DNA of 64,000 bases from IMG/VR virus record IMGVR_UViG_3300024331_000152, positions 32,001 to 96,000 of that record. One strand, given 5' to 3'. The notes under the pieces are model-generated. The model saw nothing but the letters and a program-made list of their open reading frames with translations, did no database searches and was not told the DNA's origin. Shown piece after piece: positions 19,359 through 56,797 of this stretch; position 1 is the first letter of the stretch; every line of letters begins with the position of its first letter. The DNA comes from a virus. Lineage: Duplodnaviria > Caudoviricetes. A program made the translations under genes and the position numbers.

Positions 19359-19378
19359 GTTTTCCCTGAGGTGATCTT

Positions 19379-19915: not shown

Positions 19916-19975
19916 CAAGAAATAGCGCCGGGTTATGGATTGACAATTAAGCTCCGTGTGAAATAAAACGGTCTA

Positions 19976-20368: not shown

Positions 20369-20369
20369 A

Positions 20370-20444
20370 GCACTCGAAGCATAGTCGGAGATGCCCTCGG
20401 CTTGTATCCGAGAGAACAGAGTTCGAATCTCTGCGAGTGCTCCA
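20370..20444 (+). tRNA. tRNA-Thr(TGT)
   Basis: CTCGG-CTTGTAT-CCGAG, CCA. Confidence 0.85.
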
Positions 20445-20510
20445 AAGATGTCGGATGTGGCCCCGAGTTCGAGGAGGAATAGGCGAGAGCTTATCGGGGC
20501 TCAGGTTTAT

Positions 20511-20586
20511 GGAGCTATTGGCCGAGCGGTTTAGGCGCGGGACTGTGACCCCCGACACGAGTGTTCAACTCACTCATAGCTCCCCA
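20511..20586 (+). tRNA. tRNA-His(GTG)
   Basis: CTGTGAC loop, G-1:C73. Confidence 0.85.
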
Positions 20587-20590
20587 ATTT

Positions 20591-20665
20591 GGGGCTGTAG
20601 TGCTAATGGGAACACACTGGTTTTGCACTCCAGAGTTGAGAGTTCGATTCTCTCCAGCTCCACCA
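20591..20665 (+). tRNA. tRNA-Ala(TGC)
   Basis: G3-U70, TTTGCAC loop, CCA. Confidence 0.85.
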
Positions 20666-20699
20666 AATTTACGCAGGCGCTGAGCCCTCTCTGTTCTAT

Positions 20700-20862
20700 A
20701 CGTGACACGCTCAGGGAAGAAGATCAAAGGTGTCGCGTATATGCTCGCTTTTGGTTACAACCTTGAAAGAATTAAGGCAGAAATCGCAAAATGCGTCGTA
20801 CGCTGCGCGAACTGTCACCGCCGCCGAACGGCGAAGGTTTTAGGAAATTGGAAGTTGCACCA
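20700..20862 (+). pseudogene. Remnant of an HNH endonuclease
   Basis: Frame reading LERIKAEIAKCVVRCANCHRRRTAK with no N-terminal half. Confidence 0.6.
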
Positions 20863-20863
20863 T

Positions 20864-20940
20864 CAGGGCGTAGCCTAGCGGCTTCAGGCACTCGCTTCGG
20901 GAGCGAGATGACGTGAGTTCGAATCTCACCGCCCCGACCA
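20864..20940 (+). tRNA. tRNA-Pro(CGG)
   Basis: CTCGC-TTCGGGA-GCGAG, CCA. Confidence 0.85.
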
Positions 20941-20986
20941 TTTTAACGAGCCGGTTTTCATTAAAGAAATCGGCTGAAAATTTTAA

Positions 20987-21064
20987 CCGGGTTTAGCCTA
21001 GTCTGGCTCAGGCACCTGCTTTGGGAGCAGGACGACGGGGGTTCAAATCCCTCAGCCCGGACCA
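20987..21064 (+). tRNA. tRNA-Pro(TGG)
   Basis: CCTGC-TTTGGGA-GCAGG, CCA. Confidence 0.85.
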
Positions 21065-21065
21065 T

Positions 21066-21154
21066 GCACCCGTAGCCTAGCGGATTCAGGTAACGGTCTA
21101 CGAAACCGTCGAGGGAAACCTCTTACGCAGGTTCGATTCCTGCCGGGTGCTCCA
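21066..21154 (+). tRNA. tRNA-Arg(ACG) with long variable arm
   Basis: ACGGT-CTACGAA-ACCGT, GAGG-GAAA-CCTC extra arm. Confidence 0.8.
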
Positions 21155-21169
21155 TAATTGTAAGTGTTC

Positions 21170-21224
21170 GGCGCGGTGAGGCTGGGCGTGGCACGGTGAG
21201 GTTTGGTTCGGTATGGTTTGGCAT
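21170..21224 (+). repeat. GGY-NN pentamer mini-array (11 perfect units), putative guide RNA
   Basis: GGCGC GGTGA GGCTG GGCGT GGCAC GGTGA GGTTT GGTTC GGTAT GGTTT GGCAT. Confidence 0.85.
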
Positions 21225-21250
21225 TCTTGCCATGAGGAGGGTTATGCGAA

Positions 21251-21655
21251 TTGAAAAGGACATTTGGTCAGCGAGCTGCTGACTGGGTTACTGAAGCAAG
21301 TGGTAGCTGGCCGTTCATTCTGTGGTCAGTTGTTCTTGGCGTACTCTGGGTCTTGTCGAATGTGAGCAAGGTCCTTGTCTTCGATCCGTATCCTTTCCTG
21401 TTTTTGAACTGGGTGCTGACTGTGATCAGCACGTTGCAATCCCCGCTCATCATGCTGTCGCAGAATCGGCAGAATGAAACTGATCGCGAGCGCGTAGATA
21501 TGATCGTCCAGAAGCTGGACGATCATATCCGGGAAATTAAATTGCGCGCATGGCGAAGTTGTGGTAGGGTAGTCAAGTTGGGCTCAGGCCCGAGATTGAT
21601 CTTTGAAATCAAGTTTCCGTGGGTTGTAAACATGGATGGCCTTAAAAGATCCTGA
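21251..21655 (+). CDS. DUF1003-family membrane protein
   Basis: TFGQRAADWV..GSWPFI, FDPYPFLFLN..LQSPLIMLSQNRQ..DR. Confidence 0.85.
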   Translation: MKRTFGQRAADWVTEASGSWPFILWSVVLGVLWVLSNVSKVLVFDPYPFLFLNWVLTVISTLQSPLIMLSQNRQNETDRERVDMIVQKLDDHIREIKLRAWRSCGRVVKLGSGPRLIFEIKFPWVVNMDGLKRS

Positions 21656-21830
21656 CGTTAGGTTAGGCTCCGAAGCGTCCGGTCCACGGGATCAAGTTTC
21701 CGCTGACAGTGTTGCTTACATGGCAGGGTAACCTGCATTTCACTACGAATGAAAAACCGGGGCAACCCGGGTGTACCCGAAAGGGTTGCAGCACGACACC
21801 AGCGGAGAAAGTTTGGGTTGACTTGTTTGC
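21550..21830 (+). ncRNA. Candidate structured ncRNA
   Basis: Follows TAAATT-GCGCGC promoter motif; nested helices AGTCAA/TTGACT, TTCCGTGG/CCACGGGA, TCCGCTG/CAGCGGA, GNRA hairpins. Confidence 0.45.
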
Positions 21831-21831
21831 A

Positions 21832-21900
21832 TACATGGTAGCTCATTTGGTAGAGCATTCGCCTCTTAAGCGAAGGGTAGTCGGTTCAATTCCGAGTCGC
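21832..21900 (+). pseudogene. tRNA-Lys(CTT) pseudogene
   Basis: D, anticodon (TTCGC-CTCTTAA-GCGAA) and T arms present; acceptor stem and CCA missing. Confidence 0.6.
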
Positions 21901-22118
21901 AGAACGTCTCTGTACCTGAGTACGTTGATGACAATCTTCGCGCCATCAAGCGTGAGATCGAGAGCCGTCAGGCTGACCGTCGTGCGGCTCGTGTACGCGA
22001 GTTGAAGTCGCAGCGCGCCGGTCTTGCAACCGCTCAGGAGAAGCGGGAGGCCATCGAGAAGGAGCTTGCCTCACTCGGCGAGCCTGTCTAGCCATCGTCC
22101 AGAAACTGGAAAGGCCCG

Positions 22119-22340
22119 CTATGTGCGGGCCTTCTTTTTGTTTGCCTGCTCCAGCTTCTTGCGGGCACGTTCCTTGCTGATAGCGAGGTTCAGTGCGCTG
22201 GTGTACGAGAGGCAGTAGATAGCACGCGTGCCCTTGGCGCGCAGTTCCATCCAGTCAGCCTTGAACTCGACTACGATGGAGCGGGTCTTACCCCGCTCCC
22301 ATACGCAGTTCTCAGTCTCGACGACATCTTGAGGGGGCAC
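22119..22340 (-). CDS. Small basic hypothetical protein
   Basis: IVVEFK..MELRAKGTR..Y.LSY phage motif. Confidence 0.5.
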   Translation of the reverse strand: MPPQDVVETENCVWERGKTRSIVVEFKADWMELRAKGTRAIYCLSYTSALNLAISKERARKKLEQANKKKART

Positions 22341-22468
22341 ACGCGGTACTCAACCGAACCCATCACAAACGTACAGCAAGCGCTTGAGAGATACGGCATC
22401 AAGAACGTGCACGCGGGTCATCTGGAGAAGCTTGCCGAGGTATTTGGGATTGCGGCGAAAAAAGAAGC

Positions 22469-22628
22469 TTGCAATTTGCGCGCATCCTGAGTTAAGCTCT
22501 ATTTCGTTATGCAGAGAACTATAGCCATGTCGATCACCAAAGGGACCAAGAGGGTCATTTGGGGAGGCGTGTCTTAGGGGTCTGCACGAGTAGGTTTCAT
22601 CAGACCCCGACTCAGGTCGGGGTTTTTT
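22469..22628 (+). promoter_or_regulatory. Promoter, leader peptide and attenuator of tRNA operon 3
   Basis: TTGCAA-18-TAAGCT; uORF 22509-22577 MQRTIAMSITKGTKRVIWGGVS; terminator ACCCCGAC-TCAG-GTCGGGGT-T5; antiterminator GGGGTCTG(22577)/CAGACCCC(22601). Confidence 0.8.
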
Positions 22629-22646
22629 GTTGTTTGACAAGTTTAT

Positions 22647-22716
22647 AGGGGATGATCTGGGATCGACGAGGTCTCCAAAACCTCACAGCGGAGTTCAATT
22701 CTCCGATCCCCTGCCA
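22647..22716 (+). tRNA. tRNA-Trp(CCA)
   Basis: GAGGT-CTCCAAA-ACCTC, G73 CCA. Confidence 0.85.
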
Positions 22717-22719
22717 TTT

Positions 22720-22796
22720 GCCAGCGAAGCAGAAGTGGATATTGCGCGCGTCTCATAAGCGCGTTGTAGTGGGTTCGAGTCCCACCGTTGGCACCA
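22720..22796 (+). tRNA. tRNA-Met/Ile2(CAT)
   Basis: CGCGT-CTCATAA-GCGCG, CCA. Confidence 0.8.
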
Positions 22797-22864
22797 AGTT
22801 CACAGCGGTGTTCGCCTTACTCTGACGGCGCAATACCGTCCCGCTGTGAATCCAGTTTCTGGAC

Positions 22865-22944
22865 GCACGTGTAGCTGCTAGTCGGTATGTAGCAGTCCCC
22901 TTATAAGGGACCGGTTGTGGGTTCGACACCCGCCACGTGCACCA
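22865..22944 (+). tRNA. tRNA-Ile(TAT)
   Basis: GTCCC-CTTATAA-GGGAC, CCA. Confidence 0.8.
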
Positions 22945-22995
22945 AAATTAGCATCAAACCTGTTACGTCACCGGGAGACTGACAGGAGGAGAGCT

Positions 22996-23202
22996 ATGCT
23001 CATTACCCTGTTTTGGATCATTGCAGTTCTCGTTGTGGCTGGTCTTCTGTTGTACCTGATCAACACGATCCCGGGAATCGATCCAACGATCCACGCACTG
23101 ATCAGGGCTGTTGTGATCATCGTCTGCGTGGTCTTTGTGCTGTACTTTGTGTTCTCGTTGTTTAGCGGAGTGGCAATTCCAAGTCCGCACTTTACGAGGT
23201 AG
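22996..23202 (+). CDS. Small two-TM membrane protein
   Basis: AGGAGGAG RBS; two hydrophobic helices around NTIPGIDP. Confidence 0.65.
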   Translation: MLITLFWIIAVLVVAGLLLYLINTIPGIDPTIHALIRAVVIIVCVVFVLYFVFSLFSGVAIPSPHFTR

Positions 23203-23207
23203 TTTTT

Positions 23208-23282
23208 GGGCTGTAAGCTTTGTCGGCGAAGCAATCGACTCTTAATCGATAGAGCAGGGTTCGATTCCCTGACGGCCCACCA
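23208..23282 (+). tRNA. tRNA-Lys(CTT)
   Basis: ATCGA-CTCTTAA-TCGAT, CCA. Confidence 0.85.
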
Positions 23283-23340
23283 AATTTTGCGAAGGAGAAG
23301 TGAGATGCGAAAACAGAAAGATGACCCAGATAAACGAATT

Positions 23341-23416
23341 GGGGTCGTCGCATAGAGGCAACTGCAACGGACTTTTAATCCGAATGACGTGAGTTCGAAT
23401 CTCACCGGCCCCACCA
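23341..23416 (+). tRNA. tRNA-Lys(TTT)
   Basis: CGGA-CTTTTAA-TCCG, CCA. Confidence 0.85.
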
Positions 23417-23425
23417 TAGTTTTTT

Positions 23426-23502
23426 GCTGGCGTAACTCAGACGGACAGAGTGCCTGTCTTCTAAACAGGAAGCCGCTGGTTCGACTCCAGCCGTCAGCAC
23501 CA
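23426..23502 (+). tRNA. tRNA-Arg(TCT)
   Basis: CCTGT-CTTCTAA-ACAGG, CCA. Confidence 0.85.
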
Positions 23503-23503
23503 T

Positions 23504-23579
23504 GGCCCCTTAGCTCAGTCGGAAGAGCGGATCGGTCCTAACGATAAGGTCGGGAGTTCGAATCTCTCAGGGGTCACCA
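23504..23579 (+). tRNA. tRNA-Arg(CCT)
   Basis: ATCG-GTCCTAA-CGAT, CCA. Confidence 0.8.
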
Positions 23580-23585
23580 AGTTTT

Positions 23586-23662
23586 GCTGCCGTATCGGCC
23601 TCGCCTCCGAAGCGAGATCCCGTAGGTGGATAAGGCTGGTTCGAATCCAGTCGGCAGCTCCA
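23586..23662 (+). tRNA. D-armless tRNA-Arg(CCG)-like RNA
   Basis: Acceptor, CTCGC-CTCCGAA-GCGAG, long variable region, T-arm, CCA; D-arm replaced by 7 nt. Confidence 0.6.
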
Positions 23663-23667
23663 GTTTT

Positions 23668-23742
23668 GCGGATGTAGATCAACGGTAGATCGGGTGTCTT
23701 ACAAGCACTTCGTCGTGGGTTCAACTCCTACCATCCGCACCA
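23668..23742 (+). tRNA. tRNA-Val(TAC)
   Basis: GGTGT-CTTACAA-GCACT, CCA. Confidence 0.85.
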
Positions 23743-24220
23743 ACTTGTCGTGATCGAGTTCCCAATGGTGATTACGGCACAAGCCGACAAGATTATTAGG
23801 GCGATTAACGATTCCTAATGTCGTAGATTCGGCGAACTCACAAACGGGAGTGAGATGACAACAATCAACGTAGAGGTTGTAGCCGCAGATGGCGCATTTC
23901 TTCAAGAGTCCCGCTCTTAAAGCAACGCTCCTTGCATGAGATCGCACTACAGTATCGTAGGCGTTTCGAGATCCGGACTTTTTAAGATCTGCTAGGGTGA
24001 CAGATTCAAAATCTCGGCGACGGCAATCGCGACAACTTTTAACCCGATAGCGGTCTAGTATTTTGCCGCATTTTGGGCATGAATATATCTTTCGCGCATA
24101 CCCTTTCCAAGGGGTTCTAATTCTTTCTTTATTGTTGTAGATGGCCGCACATGACGAATTACAAAAACGTGGATTATTTGTTGGAACGTCGCAGTTGGCG
24201 CAGGTACGACGAAAGTTCAT
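23699..24220 (-). CDS. HNH endonuclease inserted antisense in the tRNA operon
   Basis: FCNSSCAA, CAICGY..VDCCHL...NNLVGLCRNHHWELD. Confidence 0.85.
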   Translation of the reverse strand: MNFRRTCANCDVPTNNPRFCNSSCAAIYNNKERIRTPWKGYARKIYSCPKCGKILDRYRVKSCRDCRRRDFESVTLADLKKSGSRNAYDTVVRSHARSVALRAGLLKKCAICGYNLYVDCCHLTPVCEFAESTTLGIVNRPNNLVGLCRNHHWELDHDKLVRMVGVEPTTKCL

Positions 24221-24347
24221 AGAAAGATGGTACCGGAGCTGTAGACAACGGCACCACCTTTTTAAAGAAGTAGCACAGGTTATCGTGCGAAAGAGTCATT
24301 CCTTATTCTGGACAAGACAAGGACTGGCTGTATGTTCAAAATTGAAC

Positions 24348-24424
24348 GCTGCCGTAGCTCAGTTGGCCAGAGCACACCCTTGGTAAGGGTGAGGTCGTCA
24401 GTTCGAAACTGACCGGTAGCTCCA
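24348..24424 (+). tRNA. tRNA-Thr(GGT)
   Basis: CACCC-TTGGTAA-GGGTG, CCA. Confidence 0.9.
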
Positions 24425-24430
24425 TATTGT

Positions 24431-24506
24431 TGGCGGATAGCTCAGGTGGTCAGAGCACGCGACCGATAATCGCGAGGCCGGAGTTCAACTCTCCGTCCGC
24501 CAACCA
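24431..24506 (+). tRNA. tRNA-Ile(GAT)
   Basis: CGCGA-CCGATAA-TCGCG, CCA. Confidence 0.85.
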
Positions 24507-24512
24507 AAGTTA

Positions 24513-24596
24513 GCGGGGGTCGCTCAGTGGTAGAGCCGCTGCCTTCCAAGCAGCCGACCTTGTGTCATGCGGGTTCGAATCCCGTCCCCCGCTCCA
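24513..24596 (+). tRNA. tRNA-Gly(TCC) with extended variable region
   Basis: GCTGC-CTTCCAA-GCAGC, U73 CCA. Confidence 0.8.
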
Positions 24597-25335
24597 AAGC
24601 TTTCAAGATCGCTTGGGCGTCACTATTATAGAAGCCACTCGAATTGAGACAGTTGAATTCGAGGACGTAAATATCCTCTCCAACTAAACAGAGATCCATC
24701 ACTACGGTCGGGTGCGGAAGCCAATCTTTCGCGCAGTCTGCGGCGGCTTCGAATACCCACTCGTACACAGTCTCCCGGATGCGACGGACTCCGTTGTGCC
24801 GGTATTGCGATCCAGCTACTACAACACCATCGACAACAAAGAAACGCCACTCCTGAGTAATCTCCCTTACTGGGCTAATCAGCATCTCGTCTTCGCCGTT
24901 CGGCTCTGTCTGTTCAATAAGCCACCAGTTGCGGTCTGCGGGTTCAAGAACCATTCCCGTATGGAGCTTATCTTTTACCGACTTCACGAAGACTGGTTCG
25001 GCTATCCACTCACTGCGCAGCTCAGCAGCCGTAATGGTCTTGATTTCCTTGTTTAGCATGCGCGGGTGCTTCCATGTGCGGGGATCGAACATACCGGGCC
25101 TGTAGAAGGCTCCCGGGCTCATCAGAGACGGCGCAAGGGAAGCCAACAGCGTAGAACCATAGACAAGCGTCGGCTGCAAGAGATCGAAGCCAGCAGGGAT
25201 TATCAGCTCATGCGAAAAGGGTACTACCTTCACTGTCTCGTAAGACATGCCGAGCGCTTGTAGCGCATCGGTCATCTGTTGAGTATTCGTATCGAGGATG
25301 CCGAATCCTTCTGAGTGCTCGACTAGCCATTGCAT
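24565..25335 (-). CDS. ATP-grasp (DUF4343/R2K-like) protein
   Basis: PVFVKS..K..TG, EWRFFVVDG.VV..SQY, VMDLC..VLEFNCLNSSGFY. Confidence 0.8.
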   Translation of the reverse strand: MQWLVEHSEGFGILDTNTQQMTDALQALGMSYETVKVVPFSHELIIPAGFDLLQPTLVYGSTLLASLAPSLMSPGAFYRPGMFDPRTWKHPRMLNKEIKTITAAELRSEWIAEPVFVKSVKDKLHTGMVLEPADRNWWLIEQTEPNGEDEMLISPVREITQEWRFFVVDGVVVAGSQYRHNGVRRIRETVYEWVFEAAADCAKDWLPHPTVVMDLCLVGEDIYVLEFNCLNSSGFYNSDAQAILKALERGTGFEPA

Positions 25336-31417: not shown

Positions 31418-32559
31418 TGTCGGCTGGCTCATCTGCAATGCAGGTAAGCCGTGAGTGGGAAAACCAAAAAGAGCTGATTATGCGGACGGTCGCCATAGGA
31501 CTCGACGAGGATCAGTTCCGCCTCTTCCTGTACGTTGCCCATGTACGTGGTCTCGATCCGCTCCAACGTCAGATCCACGCTGTCGTACGTAATACAAAGG
31601 AAGGCGACAAGTGGGTTCCAAAGATGACGATCCAGACCGGCATCGATGGCTATCGCGCCATCGCGAACCGGACCGGAACGTACATGCCGTCCGACAAGGA
31701 GCCGCGCGTCGAAGGTGCTGGAGGGGCAGACCTTCGTATCACGGTCTATGTGAAGAAGTTTCACGAAAAGTCTGGACAGTGGATGGAGTTCAACGCGACC
31801 GCTTACTACCGCGAGTACGTGCAGACCTATAAAGATCAGAGCGGCAAACAGGTACCCAACTCGATGTGGGCCAAAATGCCCATAAACCAACTCACGAAAT
31901 GCGCCGAGGCTCTAGCGCTCCGCAAGGGCTGGCCTGAAGAGCTTGGTCAGATCTACACCGACGAGGAAATGGGACAGGCAGACAGCTTTGCGCCGCCAGC
32001 GGACACGCGCCCCTCACAGCAAAACAAGACACAGCGAGAGGTTGGTACGCTCAAGCAGTCGAAAGAGCAGAATCGTGGACACGGCAACGAGGGCACCGAG
32101 AGACAAGCTCAACCAGACAAGACGATGTGTGCAGAGTGCCGACAGGTCGATGGGCACACTGCCGACTGCCCGCAGGGAAAGAAGGCCGCAGCCGCTAAGA
32201 AACCATCGTCCCGCGAGCGCTGGGAAAAGTCTGAAGGGCACGATCCGAAGATCCATATCAGCTTCGACGATGGCCTGCAACTCTTCGGCGTACAGAAGGA
32301 CTTGAAGATCTCGGATGAGGATATCAAGGCATTCCTCGACCGCGAGTTTAAGGTCCAGCACCGCTACCTCATCCGGCAGGATCAGTTCCAGAACGTCCTC
32401 AGTAAGCTGGCGGAAGTGTACGGCGAGAATCTTGATGCGGAACTAGAGGAAGAGCCCGAATCCGCCGAGGACGCGCCGCGCAATACCACAGCAGATGGCC
32501 TGTTTGATGAACCATCTGGCAACAAGCTGTCAGGAAAGCGGCACAAAGACCCGGCGTAG
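31393..32559 (+). CDS. bet: Single-strand annealing recombinase, Bet/RecT family
   Basis: FLYVAHVRGLDPLQRQIHAV, TIQTGIDGYRAIANRTG, WAKMPINQLTKCAEALALRKGWP. Confidence 0.85.
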   Translation: MPESNLAVMSAGSSAMQVSREWENQKELIMRTVAIGLDEDQFRLFLYVAHVRGLDPLQRQIHAVVRNTKEGDKWVPKMTIQTGIDGYRAIANRTGTYMPSDKEPRVEGAGGADLRITVYVKKFHEKSGQWMEFNATAYYREYVQTYKDQSGKQVPNSMWAKMPINQLTKCAEALALRKGWPEELGQIYTDEEMGQADSFAPPADTRPSQQNKTQREVGTLKQSKEQNRGHGNEGTERQAQPDKTMCAECRQVDGHTADCPQGKKAAAAKKPSSRERWEKSEGHDPKIHISFDDGLQLFGVQKDLKISDEDIKAFLDREFKVQHRYLIRQDQFQNVLSKLAEVYGENLDAELEEEPESAEDAPRNTTADGLFDEPSGNKLSGKRHKDPA

Positions 32560-32566
32560 GAGAAGT

Positions 32567-33382
32567 ATGACGAACAAAGAGCGAGCGGTCCGCTACCAAC
32601 GGGCCGCTGAAGCATGCAAGAAGGCGCGAGAGAATCTGCCGCCATACCCAACGGCGCTACTAGATTCTCTTGGCGCTTGTCCGCTGGACAACAAGTATGC
32701 GAAGTCGCCTCAACCGCAATTCCGAGGATGGACATGGTTTGTTGGTGGCTGTCCTGACGGGATGATTCCAAACAACGTCAGTGTGAGCCTTGAGAAAAGC
32801 GAAGATTGGGATCAATATGTCCCCGACGACATCGATCTTGACGATATTCATTACATGGGGATGTGGCGCGGTCGTACGTCATCGAAAGATCGAATCATCT
32901 ATTGCGTAATTCCGTCCTTCACACACGGTGAAGTCAGCCCGGGCGGCATAGTGGACGTCGGTGAAGAGAAGATCCGCATCGGGCAGTACACGCAGCAGGA
33001 GCTTGATGATCTAGTCCGTAAGGGTTGGGACATCATGCAGCAAATGATCAAAGAAAAGGGACGTTACGTTCCGGGAGGAATAAAAATGGGAAAGTCAGAA
33101 GTAGAAGAGATGCCATCGCCTAAACCAGCCGCATTTGTCGGCGCAAACAATCCCGCAATCGATGTGGATCATTTGTTCACCTACCACGCGCCGACGCCGG
33201 AACAGTTACCACGCTTCGCCTCGATCCGTGAAGGTGCCCGCATTTTTGCGCACATCATCCTAAACAACACGAAGCCGGGGCCGGATCAGACTTTTGCTAT
33301 TCGGCAGTTGGGCGACTGCGTGATGACCGCGAACAAGTCAATCGCACTGGAGCGCCCGCAACAAACACAGATAGTGAAATAA
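32567..33382 (+). CDS. Two-domain protein with C-terminal Acb2/Tad1-like helical hairpin (internal start at 33086)
   Basis: FTYHAPTPEQ..F.SIRE.A..FA..I..P..DQTFAIRQL..CVMTANKSIA; internal GGGAGG RBS. Confidence 0.55.
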   Translation: MTNKERAVRYQRAAEACKKARENLPPYPTALLDSLGACPLDNKYAKSPQPQFRGWTWFVGGCPDGMIPNNVSVSLEKSEDWDQYVPDDIDLDDIHYMGMWRGRTSSKDRIIYCVIPSFTHGEVSPGGIVDVGEEKIRIGQYTQQELDDLVRKGWDIMQQMIKEKGRYVPGGIKMGKSEVEEMPSPKPAAFVGANNPAIDVDHLFTYHAPTPEQLPRFASIREGARIFAHIILNNTKPGPDQTFAIRQLGDCVMTANKSIALERPQQTQIVK

Positions 33383-33405
33383 TCCAGATTCTGGATCAAT
33401 ATTGA

Positions 33406-33507
33406 GGCGAGGCCCGGAAGGTGTGATGGGGAGAGGTGTGGCACTGTTACGCTAGGTCGGGATAGGCGCGGTGTGGTAAGTGGGCGGAGTCCTCAATCTC
33501 CGCCCAC
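33406..33507 (+). repeat. GGY-NN pentamer mini-array (15 units) plus terminal hairpin
   Basis: GGCGA GGCCC GGAA GGTGT GATGG GGAGA GGTGT GGCAC TGTTA CGCTA GGTCG GGATA GGCGC GGTGT GGTAA, then GTGGGCGGAG/CTCCGCCCAC hairpin. Confidence 0.8.
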
Positions 33508-33523
33508 AAATTCGGGAGGGAAA

Positions 33524-34187
33524 AATGGCAAGACCGATGATAGAAGCGGTGTCGATGCGCTATGAGTTTACAAAAGAAGAGCGCGGCGATTTGGGGGCTG
33601 AACTTGCTCAGGTATATCAGGAGCGAGCGAAGCTCGATGAAGATAGAAAATCTATGGCCGCTCAGTTGAAGGAGCGCGAAGCGGGGATGGAAAACCGCAT
33701 CGGCACTCTCTCTCGGCAGATTACCGCTGGACACGAAATGCGGACATACGACTGCACGTTGCGCTGGGACTCGCCAAACGTTGGCGAGGTTTCGTATTAC
33801 AACAGCGTAACCGGAGAATTTGTCAAAGCTAGGCCAATGACCGTGGCCGAGCGCCAGCTCGATCTCCCGCTCCAGACCGAGGAACAGACAAAGCAGAATG
33901 TCGTCTCGTTCTTCAAGAAGGGTGGCGAGGTTGTAGAGGGAGGCGCAAAGGAGGGCGAAGAGACGCCGGGAGGCTCCGATGCTCCACCGGAGACGCCGCA
34001 GCCGCAGGGTGAAGCTGTAGCGACGCAGAGCGGCCCACCAGAGCCGCCTGCCGACTGGCACGGAAGTCTTGAGGAATATTACGCGCATGTCGGATATAAA
34101 CCGGAGCCACCGAAGCCAGTTCTCCCGGCGCGCGGGAAGCGCCCGAAGAAAGGTGTTGACACGCCGCCAGAAACTACGGTTCAATGA
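33524..34187 (+). CDS. Conserved phage hypothetical protein
   Basis: GGGAGG RBS; YEFTKEE..coiled coil..TGEFVKARPMT..ERQL. Confidence 0.7.
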
Positions 34188-34638
34188 AAGCTGCTCTGGT
34201 GAGTTAATCCCTCCAAGGTACCTCGCCCGCTAAGCGCCCGAAGGCCCCGTTCTCCTGTAACCTCGTCCCCCCGACAGGCTAAACAGAACGGGGCTTTCGC
34301 CTTTCCGGGTCTTCCACAATCAGGTACCTGTTTTGCAAACAATCCACAACAATTTTTGCTGTGGAAAACACTTGCGCGCAATTCTTGAATGCGTATGATG
34401 GCTGAGTCAGGCCGTACAACCTGATGCCTCAAACAGCGAAGTCAGCATCCGCGCCGGTCGGGGTCGGCTCCAATCGACCCCACCACCTCGCACTGAATCC
34501 TGCGTGAGGACACTGGCGTGTGGATTAAGGCTGAACTTTGCTGGATAGCTTCCAGCGGAAAATTGAGGCAATCCTATGCTTGACGCTCACAGAGCGCCAC
34601 AGGCACGCGCTAGTTTTTTGTCTTTTGAGGGATCGAAA

Positions 34639-35469
34639 GTGAATGAACTAAAAAAGCTACTTGATCGTCCCATTGCTTTTCATCGACCTTTCGTAAAAAT
34701 CACTGGCAGCGTTAATGGCGCGCTGATGCTTTCACAGGCTTTCTATTGGGCTAATCGCACCAACGATCCCGATGGTTGGTTTTACAAAACACAACAGGAA
34801 TGGGAAGAAGAGACCGGCCTCACCCGGCGAGAGCAGGATGGAGCAAGAGCGAAACTCCGCTCTGTTGGCGTCATCGAAGAAAAGCTCGTTGGGGTACCTG
34901 CGCGCCTCTATTACCGCGTGAATATGAAAGCTTTGGTTGAGGCTATGCACGAAACCGCCAAACTAGATGCACCGGACCCCCAGCCAGATGCACCAAACAG
35001 CCAAACTGTAGGCACCGAACCGCCAAACTCTATGCACGAAACCGCCAAACTATTAAAGAACAGAGACTACACAGAGACTACACAGAGACTACCTGACGCG
35101 GCAACTCCCGTGGAAAACCCAAAAAGCCCTCAGGTGCCTATCAAGTCTGAAATTACTTCGCATATGGTTGCGAAAGGCGTAATCGAAGAGCTAATGCTCG
35201 CAGGGAAAGATCTTGCAGTAAACCTTGAGGCAATTGCTCAGGCAGAACTAAAACGCGGCGGTAATCCAGACGACATCCGCGACCGTATGATCGCGGCGTG
35301 GCGGCTGTACGAACAGGAAAAGTCAAAGCTGGAGTACGTCAAGGGACCGGCAAAATTTTTCGGCGACGGCGACTGGCGAGATCCAAAGTCGTGGCCATAC
35401 CCGAAGGGATCGCGAAAAAAAGATCCTTTTGAAAATATGAAATTCATTAACTCTGGGGGGAAGAAGTGA
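34639..35469 (+). CDS. Phage replication initiator (wHTH)
   Basis: DRPIAFHR..TGSVNGALMLSQAFYW..GWFYKTQQEWEEETGLTRREQ; lies shortly upstream of dnaB. Confidence 0.75.
   Translation: MNELKKLLDRPIAFHRPFVKITGSVNGALMLSQAFYWANRTNDPDGWFYKTQQEWEEETGLTRREQDGARAKLRSVGVIEEKLVGVPARLYYRVNMKALVEAMHETAKLDAPDPQPDAPNSQTVGTEPPNSMHETAKLLKNRDYTETTQRLPDAATPVENPKSPQVPIKSEITSHMVAKGVIEELMLAGKDLAVNLEAIAQAELKRGGNPDDIRDRMIAAWRLYEQEKSKLEYVKGPAKFFGDGDWRDPKSWPYPKGSRKKDPFENMKFINSGGKK
34943..35092 (+). repeat. Iteron-like repeats (probable replication origin)
   Basis: CTATGCACGAAACCGCCAAACTA at 34943 and 35030 with degenerate copies between at about 22-bp spacing; ACAGAGACTAC x3 at 35060-35092. Confidence 0.7.
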
Positions 35470-35682: not shown

Positions 35683-38370
35683 ATGAGTAGGGACGACTAC
35701 GCCGTTCCAGATAAAGCGCCAGAGAAGCCGCCATCGCGGCGCAAGCGGCCTGCGCTGACAGATGGTGATGTATTGCACAACATCACGCTTCCGGCCAACA
35801 TCGATGCCGAGAAAACGATTCTTGGCGCGGTCTTCATGGACGAGGATTACATCTTCGAAGCCATCGAGAGGCTTCAACCTGAAGACTTTTCTCTTGACTC
35901 ACATAAGCGGATTTTTGCCTGCATGCTTAGCTTGTCGCGTGAGCGCGAGGCAATCGACATCGTCACAGTAAGTAACGATCTCTCAAAGAAAAAAGAGATC
36001 GAGTACATCGGCGGTGTGGCGTATCTTGCGTCTCTGTCGGAAGGTCTGCCAATGAGGCCACAGATCGACGACTATATCCGGATTGTGAAAGACAAGGCAA
36101 TGGCGCGCCGGTTGATTCACGTGTGTTCTAAAACAATCACGCAAGCCTCAGATCAATCAGAGCCATCATTGATCACAGCAAGCGCCCTAAGCGCTGGCCT
36201 TGAGGAAGTGATTTCAGGCAGCGTTCATCGCCGTCTCGTTCCTGTCGATGAAGCGACTATCGAAGTTCTCAACGACTTTGAGAAGCAAGCTCAGCTTACA
36301 GAGACTCCGGGGTTTAGTTGGGGCGTTGAGGGCCTTGACGAGGCGACAGGGGGCATCCAGCCCGGAGAACAAGCCGTTGTCGGCTGCTACTCTGGAGTCG
36401 GTAAGACGACGCTCCTCGCGCAGATCGTGGCCGCAAATTGTCTCAAGGGCCGCAAGATCGCGCTGTTTTTGATCGAGCCAACCAAGAAGACATTTCTTCG
36501 TCAGCTCTACGCTGTGCTTCATGGCATCCGCTACACGGCGTGTACGAAGCCATGGCTCGCTACATCACACGAGAAACAGCAGTTCCGCGACGCCGCGCGC
36601 TTCGTGGCGAATGAGTGGGCTAAGAGCCTATTCCTATTCGACGAACGCAACCTGACGCTTGACGAGGAGATTGCGCACGGTCGTCTGGCAATGCATCGCC
36701 ATGGCGTGGAGTTGATCGGGATCGACTACATCCAACGCATGCAGGTTCCCGCGACCGACAAGAATGAAGACATGCGGCTCCGAATGGGGCGCGCCAGTAT
36801 CGCGAATGCGGAACTAGTGAAGGATACTGGAGCCCGAACATTAGTCTTGTCGCAGTTGAATCGCGGGGGTAATCTTGAATCCGTTCCAACCATGAACATG
36901 CTGCGCGAGTGCGTACATGGCGATACGCGCGTAATTGACGCGGTGAGCGGCAGGCTATGGAAAGTGGCTGATCTTGAGGCTGGCGCGATGATTATGGCAG
37001 TAGATGATTGCCAACACGTTCGGCCTGCCAAAGTGAGTAAAGTGTGGAGTACCGGCGTAAAGCCAGTTTGGAAAGTTAAAACATCGACCGGAAAAACAAT
37101 CACATGCACAGCAAATCATCCACTTCGTTCAGCTACGGGGTGGAAAACTGTAAAAGAACTGCAAACAGGAGACTGCATTGCTTCTGCGATGTATATACCA
37201 GAGGCAAAGGAACCAGAAGATAATCACTATGACCTATGCAGGCTTCTCGGATATTTGACAGGAGATGGGAGCTACCTGCGCAGCAGATCAGTATCATTTA
37301 TTTCCAATGACACAGAGACGTTCGATGATGTGGAAGAAATTATGCTGAATTACTGGCCAAGCATTTCAGTGCATCGCAAAAAAAGTTCCCGATACCACGA
37401 GGCCAGCTTCACAATGGCGGGGAATGTGTCGAAAAATAACGGCAATCCTGTGCGAGTATTTCTTCAGGAAATTGGCGTATATGGGCAGCGTGACAGTGAA
37501 AAACATATTCCGGAGTACGTCTGGGCTCGCGGTAGAGAAGGTGCGCGGCAATTTTTAGCCGGTTATCTCGCCACGGACGGGTGCGTTAAAAAAGAAAAAT
37601 ACAACTCCGGGCTGACAGGATGGCGAGTTCACTTCGATAGCACCAGCTATCGGCTAGCGAGAGATATACAAACGCTCCTCCAAAGACTTGGAATAGTGTC
37701 TTCAATTTCAAACGGATACACTTCCAAGAAAGCAACAAAGCCACTCTATCGTGTGTACCTCAGTTCCTATAAACCAAATCTTTTATGGTTTGCCTCAACG
37801 ATTCCAGTGAGAGGTCGCAAAGCGGAGTTGTTGGCGTCAGCAGCGGCGTGGTGCGACAACACGAAGACAATAACCAATTCAGGCCCGTTCGGTCTTCCTC
37901 GTGAGATTAGCCGCTACGCGTCTATTCGTTACGCTGGCCTGTGGAAAGATCAAGGGAAAATGATGGACAGGGAAAGGGCCGCTGCGCTGGCATGTAAATT
38001 TTCAGATCAATGGCTATTGTCTTACGCCAAGAGCGATTTGTTATGGGAAAAAGTTGTTGCTATTGAACCGGCTGGAGAGGCTGAGGTGTACGATCTTACA
38101 GTGCCAGAAACGGGAGCGTTTTTAGCAGACGGTCTAGTTGCGCATAATAGTGGTCAGCTTGAGAATGACGCTACAACGATCTGCCTATTGCACCTCAAGT
38201 GGGATTCTGATCTCGGCCACTTCACAGATGAGGGAGCTGGGATCATCTGCAAGCAGCGCTTCGGGGTTCCGTGTAACGTGAAACTTTTCAAGGATTCAAA
38301 GACTGCAAAGTGGTGTTCCGGCGACAGGCCGGAAGGTGAAGTGGCGTACGAGCAGCCAAAGCTTTACTAG
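35683..38370 (+). CDS. dnaB: Replicative DnaB-like helicase with intein
   Basis: PANIDAEKTILGA N-domain, GCYSGVGKT Walker A, IDYIQ, LSQLNR, LRE|..|SGQLENDA. Confidence 0.92.
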   Translation: MSRDDYAVPDKAPEKPPSRRKRPALTDGDVLHNITLPANIDAEKTILGAVFMDEDYIFEAIERLQPEDFSLDSHKRIFACMLSLSREREAIDIVTVSNDLSKKKEIEYIGGVAYLASLSEGLPMRPQIDDYIRIVKDKAMARRLIHVCSKTITQASDQSEPSLITASALSAGLEEVISGSVHRRLVPVDEATIEVLNDFEKQAQLTETPGFSWGVEGLDEATGGIQPGEQAVVGCYSGVGKTTLLAQIVAANCLKGRKIALFLIEPTKKTFLRQLYAVLHGIRYTACTKPWLATSHEKQQFRDAARFVANEWAKSLFLFDERNLTLDEEIAHGRLAMHRHGVELIGIDYIQRMQVPATDKNEDMRLRMGRASIANAELVKDTGARTLVLSQLNRGGNLESVPTMNMLRECVHGDTRVIDAVSGRLWKVADLEAGAMIMAVDDCQHVRPAKVSKVWSTGVKPVWKVKTSTGKTITCTANHPLRSATGWKTVKELQTGDCIASAMYIPEAKEPEDNHYDLCRLLGYLTGDGSYLRSRSVSFISNDTETFDDVEEIMLNYWPSISVHRKKSSRYHEASFTMAGNVSKNNGNPVRVFLQEIGVYGQRDSEKHIPEYVWARGREGARQFLAGYLATDGCVKKEKYNSGLTGWRVHFDSTSYRLARDIQTLLQRLGIVSSISNGYTSKKATKPLYRVYLSSYKPNLLWFASTIPVRGRKAELLASAAAWCDNTKTITNSGPFGLPREISRYASIRYAGLWKDQGKMMDRERAAALACKFSDQWLLSYAKSDLLWEKVVAIEPAGEAEVYDLTVPETGAFLADGLVAHNSGQLENDATTICLLHLKWDSDLGHFTDEGAGIICKQRFGVPCNVKLFKDSKTAKWCSGDRPEGEVAYEQPKLY
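36910..38148 (+). mobile_element. Intein with LAGLIDADG endonuclease (413 aa)
   Basis: Starts CVHGDT after LRE, TANHPL block B, LLGYLTGDG and FLAGYLATDG, ends GLVAHN|S. Confidence 0.92.
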
Positions 38371-38400: not shown

Positions 38401-39138
38401 ATGGAAATTGTCCACGTCTTGGACGAGAAACAACGTGCACTGGTACTCGAAAGCGGACGAGTGCTTGTGGAGAGCAATGTCACACTCCGTAACGTTTCAA
38501 AGCTGATCGCATGGCATGGTGGGTTCATTGAGCACCTCGCCGATCAAGGTGCTTGGGGAGTTCTCGGATTTGCCAATCAGCACGAGTTCCGGATCGCCAA
38601 AGGCTTCAGCCGGTCAAACTGGTATAGGTTGGTCGCTATAGGTCTGCGATTCCAGAAACTGGACTGTGACAGCTACCTCGCGATGTCAACAGAAAATGCG
38701 GAACGGTTAGGTTTGGAGCGGGAAGATGTTCGCCTCGATCCGGAAAATTTGCGCGCCGCTGCTGAAATGAAAACTTCCGACTTCGCCGACTACCTTGTTA
38801 CCAAGGGAGCCCACGCGGAAGGAAAGTCAAAATCTGAGAAGTGGGCGGAATGGAATTTCAAACTTCGAGCTGAGCAGAAGAAAGTCATGCAAGATGGGCT
38901 GCGCGGTTGGATGGTTGAGCATGAACTCGAAGATGAAACGTTCGCTCTTGAACTTCTAATTGCAGAATACCGCGACCGCCCAGCAATGACGACATTTATG
39001 CTTGATGCGAAAGATAAGCTCACGCAGGCGATTAAAGAAACTTCGGATCTCAGCAGTTTAAAACTGACCGTAGCAAATCACGTTTTAGAAATGGGTCATA
39101 TAATTGAAGTGTGCTGCGGTGAAGTAGACGCAGCATAG
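38401..39138 (+). CDS. Hypothetical protein
   Basis: GGAGGG RBS, long ORF. Confidence 0.7.
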   Translation: MEIVHVLDEKQRALVLESGRVLVESNVTLRNVSKLIAWHGGFIEHLADQGAWGVLGFANQHEFRIAKGFSRSNWYRLVAIGLRFQKLDCDSYLAMSTENAERLGLEREDVRLDPENLRAAAEMKTSDFADYLVTKGAHAEGKSKSEKWAEWNFKLRAEQKKVMQDGLRGWMVEHELEDETFALELLIAEYRDRPAMTTFMLDAKDKLTQAIKETSDLSSLKLTVANHVLEMGHIIEVCCGEVDAA

Positions 39139-39140: not shown

Positions 39141-39205
39141 GCCGAGGTCAGGTGAGGTATGTCGTCGTGAGTTGACGCGAGGCGCGGCTGGGTGCGGTAT
39201 GGTTA
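39141..39205 (+). repeat. GGY-NN pentamer mini-array (13 units)
   Basis: GCCGA GGTCA GGTGA GGTAT GTCGT CGTGA GTTGA CGCGA GGCGC GGCTG GGTGC GGTAT GGTTA. Confidence 0.8.
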
Positions 39206-39589: not shown

Positions 39590-39753
39590 TGCCTCAGCGA
39601 GTCGTAAGGGTTACGATCTGGATTTGTCTGCGATGCGGTCACGAGTGGAGTAGTAAGGATGGTAGTAAGCCAGTCTGCTGTGGGAGCTGCAAATCGCCGT
39701 ATTGGGATCGTCCTAGACAATCCGCAAAACAAAAGGCTACCGGGGGGAAATAA
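39590..39753 (+). CDS. Small zinc-ribbon protein, first gene of RAMP operon 1
   Basis: CLRCGHEW..PVCCGSCKSPYWD; promoter TTGACA(39553)..TATAGT; TAATG coupling to the next gene. Confidence 0.7.
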
Positions 39754-40421
39754 TGGCAACAAAGAAAGCGGCACCTGCGCCAACGCAGGATAGCAAGAGC
39801 GCTGTCGTACAAATCAAACCACCAAAGTTTCAGATTGGTGTTTTTAAAATCACTGGCACAGCACCGTTGGTGATGAACAAGTTTCCGCAAAAAGCCCTTG
39901 AGCAGATGGAAGACAAGCAGCGCGCAGGCAGTCAGGCGCGCAAGGGGCAAAAGAGAGAGTCGAAAGATTTCGAATCTCTCTATGAGGGCGCAAAACATAT
40001 CGCGCGGCAAGGCTGGTGTGGTATCCCAGCGTCGGCGTTCCGAAATGCAATGATCTCCGCCTGCCGTCTCGTTAATTTTAAAATGACACTCGCGAAGCTG
40101 ACGATCTTCATCGAAGCGGATGGTTTCGATAAAGACGAAGGCACGCCGCTGGTGCGGATCACATCCGGCAATCCGAAGCCAGTAAAGATGGCTGTCAGAA
40201 ATGCAACTGGCGTCTGTGATGTTCGTATCCGCCCGATGTGGGACGAATGGTCGGCTGTCCTGCGCATTCGTTTCGACAACGACCAATTCTCACTTACTGA
40301 CGTCGCCAACTTGCTGGACCGAGTTGGCCAGCAGGTCGGACTCTTGGAAGGCAGGCCCGACTCGAAGGCGTCGGCTGGCATGGGTTGGGGACTATTCAGA
40401 ATTGAGGAGGCTAAGAAATAA
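39753..40421 (+). CDS. Stand-alone RAMP/Cas7-like RNA-binding protein 1
   Basis: FKITGTAPLVMN first strand, GIPASAFRNAM helix, VRIRPMW thumb, C-terminal Gly-loop VGLLEGRPDSKASAGMGWGLF. Confidence 0.7.
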   Translation: MATKKAAPAPTQDSKSAVVQIKPPKFQIGVFKITGTAPLVMNKFPQKALEQMEDKQRAGSQARKGQKRESKDFESLYEGAKHIARQGWCGIPASAFRNAMISACRLVNFKMTLAKLTIFIEADGFDKDEGTPLVRITSGNPKPVKMAVRNATGVCDVRIRPMWDEWSAVLRIRFDNDQFSLTDVANLLDRVGQQVGLLEGRPDSKASAGMGWGLFRIEEAKK

Positions 40422-40873
40422 TGGGCACACTCTCGGCGAGTACACCAATCATTGACGAACTTCGTGCAATCGCGGCAAAGCACGAAGGTCGTCTTCACGC
40501 AGAAGAAGTTGTCAAAGCCGCCCGTTCTCAGAATTCTCCTTTACATGACAAGTTCATGTGGGACGATACTGAAGCGGCTCATCAGTATCGCCTAGAGCAG
40601 GCGCGCCACTTAATCCGTACGACGATTCAGTACATCGATGTCGGCGGATCGCCGCGCCCCGTGAATGTATTTGTGAGTCTCAGTAGCGACCGTGAAGATG
40701 GCGGCGGCTACAGAGAGCTACAAACGGTTCTCAAAAAGAAAGAGCATCGAGAGGTTCTTCTCGCCGACGCTCTCAAAGAGATGCGGTCGTTTGTGGATCG
40801 GTATGAGACGATCAAGCGGCTCAGTAAGGTCGTCGGTGAAATGAAAAGAATCTTGAAGACAGTGGCAGCATAA
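40421..40873 (+). CDS. Accessory protein coupled to the RAMP gene
   Basis: TAATG coupling; SPLHDKFMWDDTEAAHQYRLEQARHLIR; immediately followed by the pentamer array. Confidence 0.7.
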   Translation: MGTLSASTPIIDELRAIAAKHEGRLHAEEVVKAARSQNSPLHDKFMWDDTEAAHQYRLEQARHLIRTTIQYIDVGGSPRPVNVFVSLSSDREDGGGYRELQTVLKKKEHREVLLADALKEMRSFVDRYETIKRLSKVVGEMKRILKTVAA

Positions 40874-41404
40874 GTACGTTCGGGTGCGGCAGGTATGGTA
40901 AGGACGGGGATGCTTTGGAAGGGTTCGTTGTGGTGCGCTTAGGTGAGGCATCGCATTGCAGGCGCGGATAGGTTGGGTTTCGTTCGCAGTGATGTGGCTT
41001 GCAATGGAGATTTGAGCTACGGAGTTGCAGGCATGGTAAGGTTCGCAAGGTTTGTCTGGGTAAGCTGAGCTACGGAGTTGCAGGTGTGGTTAGGCCCGGT
41101 TGGTTAGGAAGTGAGTGGCAAGCCGAGGCATTGCAGGTACGGTTGGGTGAGTCTAGTTCGGGCTCGTCAGGGCGTGGCAAGGTGCGGAGTTGCAGGTTAG
41201 GAATGGTCCGGTAAGGCGCAGTACGGATGCGCCGGGAAGGGCAACGCTTTGCAGGCGAGGAGAGGACTGGTTAGGTTTGCTGTGGTCCGCTCGGGTATTG
41301 CAGGTGTGGAACGGGCGGCTAGGTCCGGCTGTGTTCGCTAAGGCTGCGCGGGGTTGGGCTGAGTGAGGTAAATAAGCAGAGTGTCGGGTAACCGACACTC
41401 TGCT
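40874..41404 (+). repeat. Multi-unit GGY-NN array: 8 units separated by TGCA, closed by a 13-bp hairpin
   Basis: CGGCAGG at 40887 and TTGCAGG at 40956, 41025, 41078, 41131, 41190, 41249, 41298 (spacing 69,69,53,53,59,59,49); AGCAGAGTGTCGG-GTAA-CCGACACTCTGCT at 41375-41404. Confidence 0.9.
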
Positions 41405-41422
41405 AAAAACTTGGAGGTTTTG

Positions 41423-41857
41423 ATGGGTAAGACGGTCAATAAAGTTTTTCTGCTTGGCAATGTTGGAAAAGATCCTGACATGAAGTCAACAGGCGGCGGC
41501 ACGCTCGTAGCGAGCTTCTCTCTCGCTACAGCAGATCGAACAAAAGACGCTCAAGGTAATTGGAGTGAGCGCGCCGAATGGCACAACCTTAAAGCCTTCG
41601 GTCGTACTGCCGAGATCATCCGCGACTATGTCGTGAAGGGCTCAAAGATCTTCGTCGAGGGCAAGCTTCAGACCAGTAGCTGGGACGACAAGCAGAGCGG
41701 CAAGAAAGTCTACCGCACTGAGATTATTGTCAACGACATCTCACTACTCGGCGGGCGCGAGGATTCAGGATCTGGTGGCGGTCAGTCGTATGGCAAGCAG
41801 TCGCGTGATGATTCGTACGACGCGGACCCGATCACAGACGAGGATATACCCTTTTAG
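41423..41857 (+). CDS. ssb: Single-stranded DNA-binding protein
   Basis: VNKVFLLGNVGKDP, EWH, KGSKIFVEGKLQT, C-terminal DEDIPF. Confidence 0.95.
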   Translation: MGKTVNKVFLLGNVGKDPDMKSTGGGTLVASFSLATADRTKDAQGNWSERAEWHNLKAFGRTAEIIRDYVVKGSKIFVEGKLQTSSWDDKQSGKKVYRTEIIVNDISLLGGREDSGSGGGQSYGKQSRDDSYDADPITDEDIPF

Positions 41858-56155: not shown

Positions 56156-56797
56156 ATGGCAAGAGGAACGGCAACAATGGTAAACGAGCCGACCAATGGG
56201 GCGGCTGAGGCGATTGCGACTGGACTTCCTTACATCGTCAACGTGACGATTGAAGGCACAGCAGATCTTCTTCTTCATAGCTGGAGTTGCGAAGCCGTAG
56301 AAGAGAAGGCGACAGCAAAGAAGGGATCAGCAGCGAAGAAGACAGATAATTTGGAAAGTTACGTACGTCGCAACGACGATGGCGTAATCTGTCTGCCAAG
56401 CGAATATCTTCGCATGAGTGTCGTAAACGCCGCGAAGTATCGGCAGGACCCGCGATCTCCTCGAAAGTCCGCGATGGATTTATTTAAGGCCGCGCTTATT
56501 AGCCTTGAGCCCCTCTGCCCGATTACTACGGCGGCTGGAGATCTTCCGAGGGTTTGGGAATACGAACATAAGTGTCGCGTGCAAGTGCAGCGCAACGGCA
56601 TCACGCGCGTGCGGCCTGCGTTCCGTGAAGGATGGCGAGTAGATGTACCACTGATGGTAAACTTGCCGGAATATATTCCGACAAAAGACCTGAGCGACAC
56701 GATCACGCAAGCCGGTAAGTTGATAGGTGTGGGAGATTTTCGTCCGTCATATGGACGCTTCCATATTTTAAGTTTTGAAGTTCAGAAAGCGGAATAA
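56156..56797 (+). CDS. Stand-alone RAMP/Cas7-like RNA-binding protein 2
   Basis: VTIEGTADLLLH, CLPSEYLRMSV, RVQVQRNGITRVRPAF thumb, Gly-loop AGKLIGVGDFRPSYGRF. Confidence 0.72.
   Translation: MARGTATMVNEPTNGAAEAIATGLPYIVNVTIEGTADLLLHSWSCEAVEEKATAKKGSAAKKTDNLESYVRRNDDGVICLPSEYLRMSVVNAAKYRQDPRSPRKSAMDLFKAALISLEPLCPITTAAGDLPRVWEYEHKCRVQVQRNGITRVRPAFREGWRVDVPLMVNLPEYIPTKDLSDTITQAGKLIGVGDFRPSYGRFHILSFEVQKAE

Follow-up and report, generated by a model that had tools for sequence, protein, structure and literature searches.

What is encoded by a run of GG-headed pentamers in the 5' leader of a phage gene, and against what is it directed? We addressed this question for an array that begins at position 33406 of a 64,000-nt stretch of viral DNA (the window), which covers positions 32,001 to 96,000 of the IMG/VR record IMGVR_UViG_3300024331_000152, a genome of 142,794 bp that is rated complete. 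An earlier interpretation made without database searches (the sequence-only reading) had taken the two variable bases of each pentamer as a code for the adjacent gene, read with every third base skipped. It had proposed that the guide recognises a gapped target and is aimed at the homologous allele of a related phage, with tuned self-repression as an alternative.

The 1-nt-skip code, the structure behind it and its inter-phage role are already known from preprints of April to October 2026. These describe VIPR, a CRISPR-related DNA-silencing system composed of the RAMP protein Vipr and a vrRNA of GGY/NN repeats (bioRxiv 10.64898/2026.04.26.720920, 10.64898/2026.04.26.720927, 10.64898/2026.10.15.759431). 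Vipr, a minimal RAMP protein with an RRM core, a thumb and a G-loop, polymerises with one protomer per repeat, sequesters GGY and presents NN (bioRxiv 10.64898/2026.04.26.720920, 10.64898/2026.04.26.720927). According to the VIPR preprints, the NN bases base-pair with the DNA and leave out every third base of the target; a gapped R-loop triplex results, and transcription is silenced. The skips coincide with wobble positions, targets may be on either strand and no PAM is required. Natural targets are competing phages and satellites, and self matches are lower than non-self matches: with an 80% NN-match cut-off, no self match of at least 80% was present in the authors' own sets. Characterised vrRNA clades have 9-16 units, the vrRNA being an RNA of ∼100 nt whose repeats are capped by a conserved, structured 3' tail.

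The array lies in a 142-nt leader that extends from the stop codon of an Acb2/Tad1-like gene (32495-33382) to the ATG at 33525. The leader and the gene behind it contain the following features:

33383..33395, + strand: small hairpin just 3' of the stop codon of the Acb2/Tad1-like gene, the 5' edge of the guide module, kept in the related loci L001, L002 and L004
33406..33459, + strand: guide part of the putative solo vrRNA, 11 GGY/NN repeats with NN = GA CC AA GT GG GA GT AC TA TA CG
33460..33479, + strand: four further repeats with NN = TA GC GT AA, which score 0-1 against all sampled alleles and are largely conserved in L001
33480..33507, + strand: 3' tail hairpin given by RNA fold prediction, with a 10-bp stem and an 8-nt loop
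33525..34187, + strand: gene of the phrog_12688 family in the replication module (protein P0003, 220 aa, function unknown), the self allele of the guide's proposed target
33771..33803, + strand: self footprint of 11 codons (SPNVGEVSYYN), matched at 17/22 overall and at 17/18 in the core at 33774-33800

The tract 33406-33479 consists of 15 pentamers in phase, built of a GG(Y) head followed by two variable bases; position 3 is mostly C or T. The head is GG in 12 of the 15 units and degenerate in the other three (GAT, TGT and CGC), and a single 4-nt unit, GGAA, is without the Y base. Two extra in-phase units after 33479 form the 5' arm of the tail hairpin, and the repeats at 33460-33479 may serve as a 3' handle or as non-pairing units. 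In L002, the ribosome-binding site comes immediately after the hairpin of the 33383 type and there is no array, so the array and its tail constitute an insertion of ∼110 nt. The whole-leader fold reached a z-score of only -2.1, and tails vary among the arrays of the window. The ribosome-binding site of the gene at 33525 comes after the tail hairpin. A search of 33200-33600 gave no promoter-like or terminator-like site, so the guide RNA is probably cut from the operon transcript.

Rfam at gathering thresholds assigned no family to any array and returned only tRNAs and a permuted tmRNA (14386-14775); the 36 tRNA genes lie in several clusters (window positions 8900-24600), and one of them is called SeC, with anticodon TCA. 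At its C-terminal end, the gene upstream of the guide encodes an Acb2/Tad1 hairpin domain (PF24729, E=2.5e-6). Members of this family are signal sponges against CBASS/Thoeris, and the domain is also found upstream of the target gene in L001, L002 and two further contigs. On the other side, the replication-initiator gene 34576-35469 (O-like, phrog_9773) contains five 22-nt tandem repeats and three 11-nt repeats at 34945-35092, which look like origin iterons inside an initiator gene, as in lambda. The 895-aa DnaB-type helicase ORF at 35683-38370 appears, by eye, to carry an intein-like insert, a block that starts with Cys, ends with His-Asn and has a homing-endonuclease-like middle.

Does the array spell the downstream gene? 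When every third target base was skipped, the NN bases of units 2-10 (CC AA GT GG GA GT AC TA TA) matched 33774-33800 at 17 of 18 positions, exactly as the sequence-only reading had it: the gene reads CCa AAc GTt GGc GAg GTt TCg TAt TAc, and eight of the nine dinucleotides are exact. Its statement that the skipped base is the wobble base holds throughout, since the ATG at 33525 makes 33774 a first codon position. For every sub-guide of 6-12 units, 33774-33800 was the best gapped match in the window on both strands. The control with shuffled arrays that had been suggested at the outset gave window-wide best scores of 13-16, and never 17, in 600 shuffles of unit order or letters. Across the whole 142.8-kb genome, only the 33406 array beat all 100 shuffles. 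Assuming uniform base composition, we estimated the probability of such a match anywhere in the window at about 7e-4, and at about 1e-6 if the adjacent gene and the codon frame are also required. The match of the 33406 array is real and beyond chance.

The skip of one base proved specific. Scores with a 1-nt skip reached 20-22 out of 22 to 24; those with skips of 0 and 2 were 15-17 out of 22 to 24, at the level of the shuffled null (maximum, 18-19), and a skip of 3 recovered only the arrays themselves. Guide and best in-genome match share a strand, the guide being 260 nt upstream, and its NN string equals the coding strand of the target gene; by the published pairing geometry, the guide RNA would pair with the template strand. 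The footprint falls on the most conserved columns of the protein, with D82, P84, N85, G87, E88, V89 and S90 invariant in 10 relatives. When IMG/VR was scanned with a single protein for relatives of the target gene, nothing was found, and a nucleotide search of the phage collection yielded replication-initiator fragments only.

Is the protein partner of such a guide present? The genome encodes two Vipr homologues, and no further phrog_4652 gene was found in it:

39753..40421, + strand: Vipr protein 1, a RAMP protein of 222 aa (phrog_4652, E=4.5e-17)
40421..40873, + strand: candidate vipr-accessory gene of 150 aa, translationally coupled, its start overlapping the vipr 1 stop (phrog_15946, of unknown function)
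56156..56797, + strand: Vipr protein 2, a RAMP protein of 213 aa (phrog_4652, E=2.3e-17; direct match to the SUSP1 Vipr, PDB 36pp, at E=2.1e-6)

A profile of five sequences (both Viprs and three phage homologues) matched the SUSP1 Vipr of PDB 36pp at E=3.3e-12 and over nearly the full length (profile positions 25-215, chain residues 3-190). In Vipr 2, the residues corresponding to H17, R138, D177 and R179 are retained and W178 is replaced by F; the thumb Arg (R138) and the G-loop Arg (R179), which contact GGY, are conserved in both proteins. The candidate accessory gene at 40421-40873 had no Pfam or NCBIfam match, and Vipr 2 has no coupled gene. The gapped recognition insensitive to the third base, as initially proposed, is the same 1-nt-skip rule that has been shown experimentally for published VIPR, and there are two Vipr genes here. 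Homologues of Vipr 1 also occur in cultured phages, annotated as hypothetical and located near the immunity/excise region: g34 of Cyanophage Cy-LDV1 (L027), gp39 of Gordonia phage UmaThurman (L028) and gp49 of Mycobacterium phage Donkeykong (L029). The identity is 55% in Cy-LDV1 and 32-34% in 32 actinophage records.

The 142,794-bp genome contains seven GGY/NN arrays, all of them inside the window and all on the + strand. Long vrRNA arrays follow Vipr 1 (40873-41372) and surround Vipr 2 (55922-56131 and 56800-56896); the former are split by TGCA linkers about every 12 units and are followed by an SSB gene (41381-41857), and the latter run uninterrupted for 42 and about 19 units. The two vipr genes are 6 kb and 22 kb away from the guide at 33406. 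Another solo vrRNA, the third of the genome, has 12 units (39146-39205) and is located just 3' of the stop codon of 38401-39138. For this array and the long ones (40873-41372, 55922-56131 and 56800-56896), no match in the phage's own genome or the compared loci rose above the null, and the 39146 array had no exact gapped match in IMG/VR. Five one-strand GGCNN tracts of 6-14 units each in an unrelated record (IMGVR_UViG_3300033463_001190, L039:12364-14343) are probably another VIPR array.

If the guide is directed against other phages, it should be their alleles that it fits. We compared the contigs of nine relatives of P0003 (46-77% identity) and further loci, so that the sample for guides and alleles comprised 4 guide-bearing and about 20 guide-less loci. 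The matching contigs belong to syntenic sibling phages. The closest, L001, has the gene order of the window, 77% protein identity and a homologous array. Over the 11-unit footprint, the arrays of the window and L001 differ in 1 of 22 NN bases and in 9 of 32 head bases, the head differences being mostly Y-to-Y (C/T) changes at position 3. Constraint thus acts on the nominally variable NN bases, which is what a role of these bases in specificity would predict. In the tail hairpin (33480-33507), L001 shows one compensatory change (G-C to A-U) and one change from G-C to G-U.

The 33406 guide of the window matched L002 and L004 at 21/22 and L007 at 20/22, and its own gene at 17/22; the L001 guide matched L002 and L004 at 22/22 and self at 16/22, the worst score among the close alleles. 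L002 is without any array, and L004 bears a different array at the same leader site; an array of the L004 type is also present at this leader position in the more distant L013 (38% identity). The L004 and L013 guides spell the N-terminal MTEAVSxRYEF of the phrog_12688 family, and they scored 20/24 and 21/24 on their best non-self alleles and 17/24 and 16/24 on self. Frame 0 gave the best match for every guide-allele pair among true homologues, and in the matched alleles third positions vary while positions 1-2 are fixed. Expressed in percent, non-self scores were 95-100% over 11 units, and self scores were 77% over 11 units and 60% over 15 units; for the guides overall, the values were 95-100% on relatives versus 73-77% on self. 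The suggestion that the guide is aimed at the allele of a related phage and mismatches self is thus supported by siblings at 21/22 versus self at 17/22, and by 22/22 versus 16/22 for L001.

What makes the own allele a poorer match? The guide spells D-P-N-V-G-E-V-(T/S)-Y-Y-R, and the own allele, which is of the S...N type, mismatches at units 1, 8 and 11. Unit 8 is AC in the guide of the window and TC in that of L001, and the 4-nt unit is in the target register in both. The AC variant weakens the match to self, and against either family of serine codons it gets one base of the two right. Exact gapped-pattern scans returned no perfect target for the AC variant of the window in IMG/VR, and none for the TC variant in the GTDB species genomes and IMG/VR; the known targets come from metagenome assemblies only. 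The self allele of the window equals that of the array-less L003 at codon positions 1-2 of the footprint and so has not been specifically recoded. The sparing of self by the 33406 guide thus appears to rest on allele class and the AC change rather than on private recoding. Fisher tests for an excess of position 1-2 differences in the footprints were not significant for any single pair (p = 0.06-0.7).

These comparisons also bear on whether the resemblance to the gene could be fortuitous, the leader being a periodic protein-binding site with TRAP-like triplets spaced by 5 nt and NN bases free of information. Such a site would fit a 5' leader with GG-rich 5-nt periodicity and a terminal hairpin ahead of the ribosome-binding site. 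We nevertheless give this possibility practically no weight: 17/18 was never reached in the shuffles, the L001 guide fits two relatives at 22/22, three further guides stand in the same in-frame relation and the NN bases are conserved. Together, the shuffles, the sibling scores, the skip controls and the guide at 21170 described below refute it. The idea that position 3 of the pentamer tells whether the wobble base is a purine or a pyrimidine failed in the L001 and 21170 guides. We likewise dropped a TRAP/CsrA-like leader, G-quadruplexes, tRNA mimicry, quintuplet decoding and a DGR-like template, as the conservation of NN and the VIPR literature explain the data.

A second solo guide in the same genome provided an independent case. 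Its insertion site has a tRNA-Arg gene on one side and, on the other, the ribosome-binding site that serves a DUF1003 gene:

21170..21231, + strand: second solo vrRNA, 10 GGY/NN repeats and a short hairpin (guide repeats, 21170-21209)
21251-21655, ORF: DUF1003 gene (PF06210 protein), the self allele of the target family
21278..21301, + strand: self footprint of the 21170 guide (ADWVTEAS), in frame with ORF 21251-21655

The first six NN of this guide match the own codons 10-15 at 12/12 and in frame. Its first eight NN match the array-less L030-L032 at 16/16 and self at 12/16, the worst score of the close alleles. Third positions vary freely in the footprints of L030-L032, and relative to the ADWVTEFS of these siblings, two adjacent codons are recoded in self (Phe to Ala, and Ser TCN to AGT). 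The 16-base pattern of the guide has 16 matches in IMG/VR, none of them in a DUF1003 gene; by a rough estimate, this number is about the chance expectation, and we do not count it as evidence. Mismatch to self, which had been proposed for the 33406 guide, thus recurs in three further guides (L004, L013 and 21170), and in all five guides examined the self score is below that of the best non-self allele.

This last result weighs against tuned self-repression, in which the Vipr-vrRNA complex would bind its own downstream gene and throttle its transcription as a cis-linked autoregulator in the 5' leader, and the matches to relatives would follow from common descent. If guide and own gene co-evolved, self should be the best match. 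Instead, besides scoring below the best non-self allele in all five cases, self is the worst of the close alleles for the L001 and DUF1003 guides, and its 60-77% stays below the published 80% cut-off, with no self match of at least 80% in print. We consider self-repression unlikely as the main function, although the proximity of guide and own gene on the same strand (260 nt) would suit it, as would the six perfect units that the 21170 guide keeps on self. In addition, the 9-unit core at the self site of the 33406 guide, at 17/18, is longer than the 6-unit footprint of the functional SUSP1 vrRNA4, and some self-binding or partial self-repression is for this reason possible.

Could the array instead be a decaying relic, a once-working guide that persists in the leader without function? 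Three of its 15 heads are without GG, one unit is without Y, and units 12-15 match nothing. Decay would hardly leave the footprint NN more conserved than the heads between phages that are 77% identical in the neighbouring protein, nor would it keep the tail hairpin through a compensatory change and the 4-nt unit in register in both phages. Internal degeneracy is, moreover, frequent in real vrRNAs according to a VIPR preprint. We therefore regard a relic as improbable.

We are still more sceptical of a guide that is made for loading by the Vipr of a rival phage. Solo vrRNAs of satellites and VIPR-null phages have been described to redirect or turn a rival's machinery (bioRxiv 10.64898/2026.10.15.759431), and the distance of the guide from both vipr genes is in line with such a role. 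Against this decoy or hijack function, which is quite improbable here, stand the two Vipr genes that the phage has of its own and the nature of the target, an ordinary conserved phage gene rather than vipr, vrRNA or host-repeat sequence.

The explanation we favour is that 33406-33507 is a solo vrRNA gene of the phage's own VIPR system. We consider it likely that this gene serves to silence the allele of sibling phages, and the guide, judged by its allele matches, most likely silences the relatives' gene while it largely spares the phage itself. By analogy with published VIPRs, one of the two Viprs would polymerise along the 33406 RNA with one protomer per pentamer, bury the GGY heads and present the NN dinucleotides. 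These would pair with the template strand of the target and skip each third base, and the resulting gapped R-loop would block transcription. With the skip placed on the codon wobble base, synonymous changes at third positions would not help a target to escape. The guide would thereby silence the phrog_12688-family gene in co-infecting or resident relatives with an allele of the D...R type, and the own S...N allele, with its mismatches at units 1, 8 and 11, would be largely spared. The filament, the 1-nt skip and the silencing in this scheme come from published work on other VIPRs; the array, the match statistics, the allele matrix and the Vipr homology were observed here. We infer that the RNA is made and loaded, and likewise which Vipr loads it and that 17/22 is too weak for self-silencing.

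Two features of the array sit less easily with this explanation. It has three non-GG heads and one 4-nt unit, though perturbation of the GGY motif abolished silencing in a VIPR preprint. Furthermore, its four tail-proximal repeats match no sampled allele, though R-loop growth begins at the tail end in the SUSP1 structures (bioRxiv 10.64898/2026.04.26.720927).

What is new here is a large uncultivated phage with two Viprs and seven arrays, and a locus that shows cleanly, in nature, sibling phages at war through allele-specific guides. Guides have been inserted into the leader of the spared self allele three times (for two footprints in the phrog_12688 family and for one DUF1003 gene), and different guides sit at the same leader in different relatives. 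We tentatively suggest, while leaning slightly towards doubt, that a solo vrRNA and a mismatched self allele form a tightly linked cassette of killer and immunity that recombination during co-infection does not separate: as the guide sits in the 5' leader of the targeted gene, recombination cannot part the weapon from the resistant allele. In such a cassette, escape would include the switch between serine codon families (TCN to AGY), among the few synonymous routes against a wobble-blind guide. A bolder variant of this idea would be that the proximity of guide and target reflects new guides arising from the adjacent gene. Should this linkage prove adaptive, VIPR guides would act as poison-antidote elements; this, if true, helps to explain both the spread of guides and the splitting of phage populations into lineages that exclude one another. 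From the sampled alleles, there is also a ready panel for measuring the number and positions of mismatches that VIPR tolerates.

How does this locus compare with known systems? In TRAP-bound leaders of Bacillus, conserved triplets about 2 variable bases apart are bound by an oligomeric protein. The spacers of TRAP sites are information-free, whereas the two variable bases are here conserved and spell the target. Class 1 CRISPR systems, with Cas7 on crRNA, share the polymerisation of RAMP protomers on a guide and the thumbs that break the duplex periodically. They differ in their 6-nt period with five paired bases and symmetric flipping, in their repeat-spacer arrays and adaptation genes, and in the PAM of most types, features that do not apply to this locus. 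We found no CRISPR-type repeats among the tandem and direct repeats and no Cas Pfam match in the neighbouring genes; contiguous (skip 0) matches reached only background, and a CRISPR-Cas reading was rejected.

The type II exemplar among the VIPR types I-VII, the VIPR of Escherichia phage SUSP1, is much closer. Both have GGY/NN repeats within the range of 9-16 units, a 1-nt skip on the wobble base, a conserved coding target in a competing phage and a small homologous Vipr; the 3' tail, which is structured in SUSP1, is here a predicted hairpin, and the short coupled gene is here a candidate accessory gene. Unlike the SUSP1 clade with its pseudoknot, however, the guide described here would end in a plain 10-bp tail hairpin; it contains one 4-nt repeat and three degenerate heads, it leaves four tail-proximal repeats unmatched, and two divergent vipr genes reside in one 143-kb phage. 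As in published solo vrRNAs, the guide stands alone and far from vipr, is aligned to the wobble positions and matches self less well than relatives. A term search of the main texts of the three VIPR preprints did not find the arrangement of a guide beside its own allele. In contrast to published solo vrRNAs, the phage is VIPR-positive, and the target is not a vipr gene, a vrRNA, a satellite or a host repeat but the sibling allele of the gene directly downstream of the guide.
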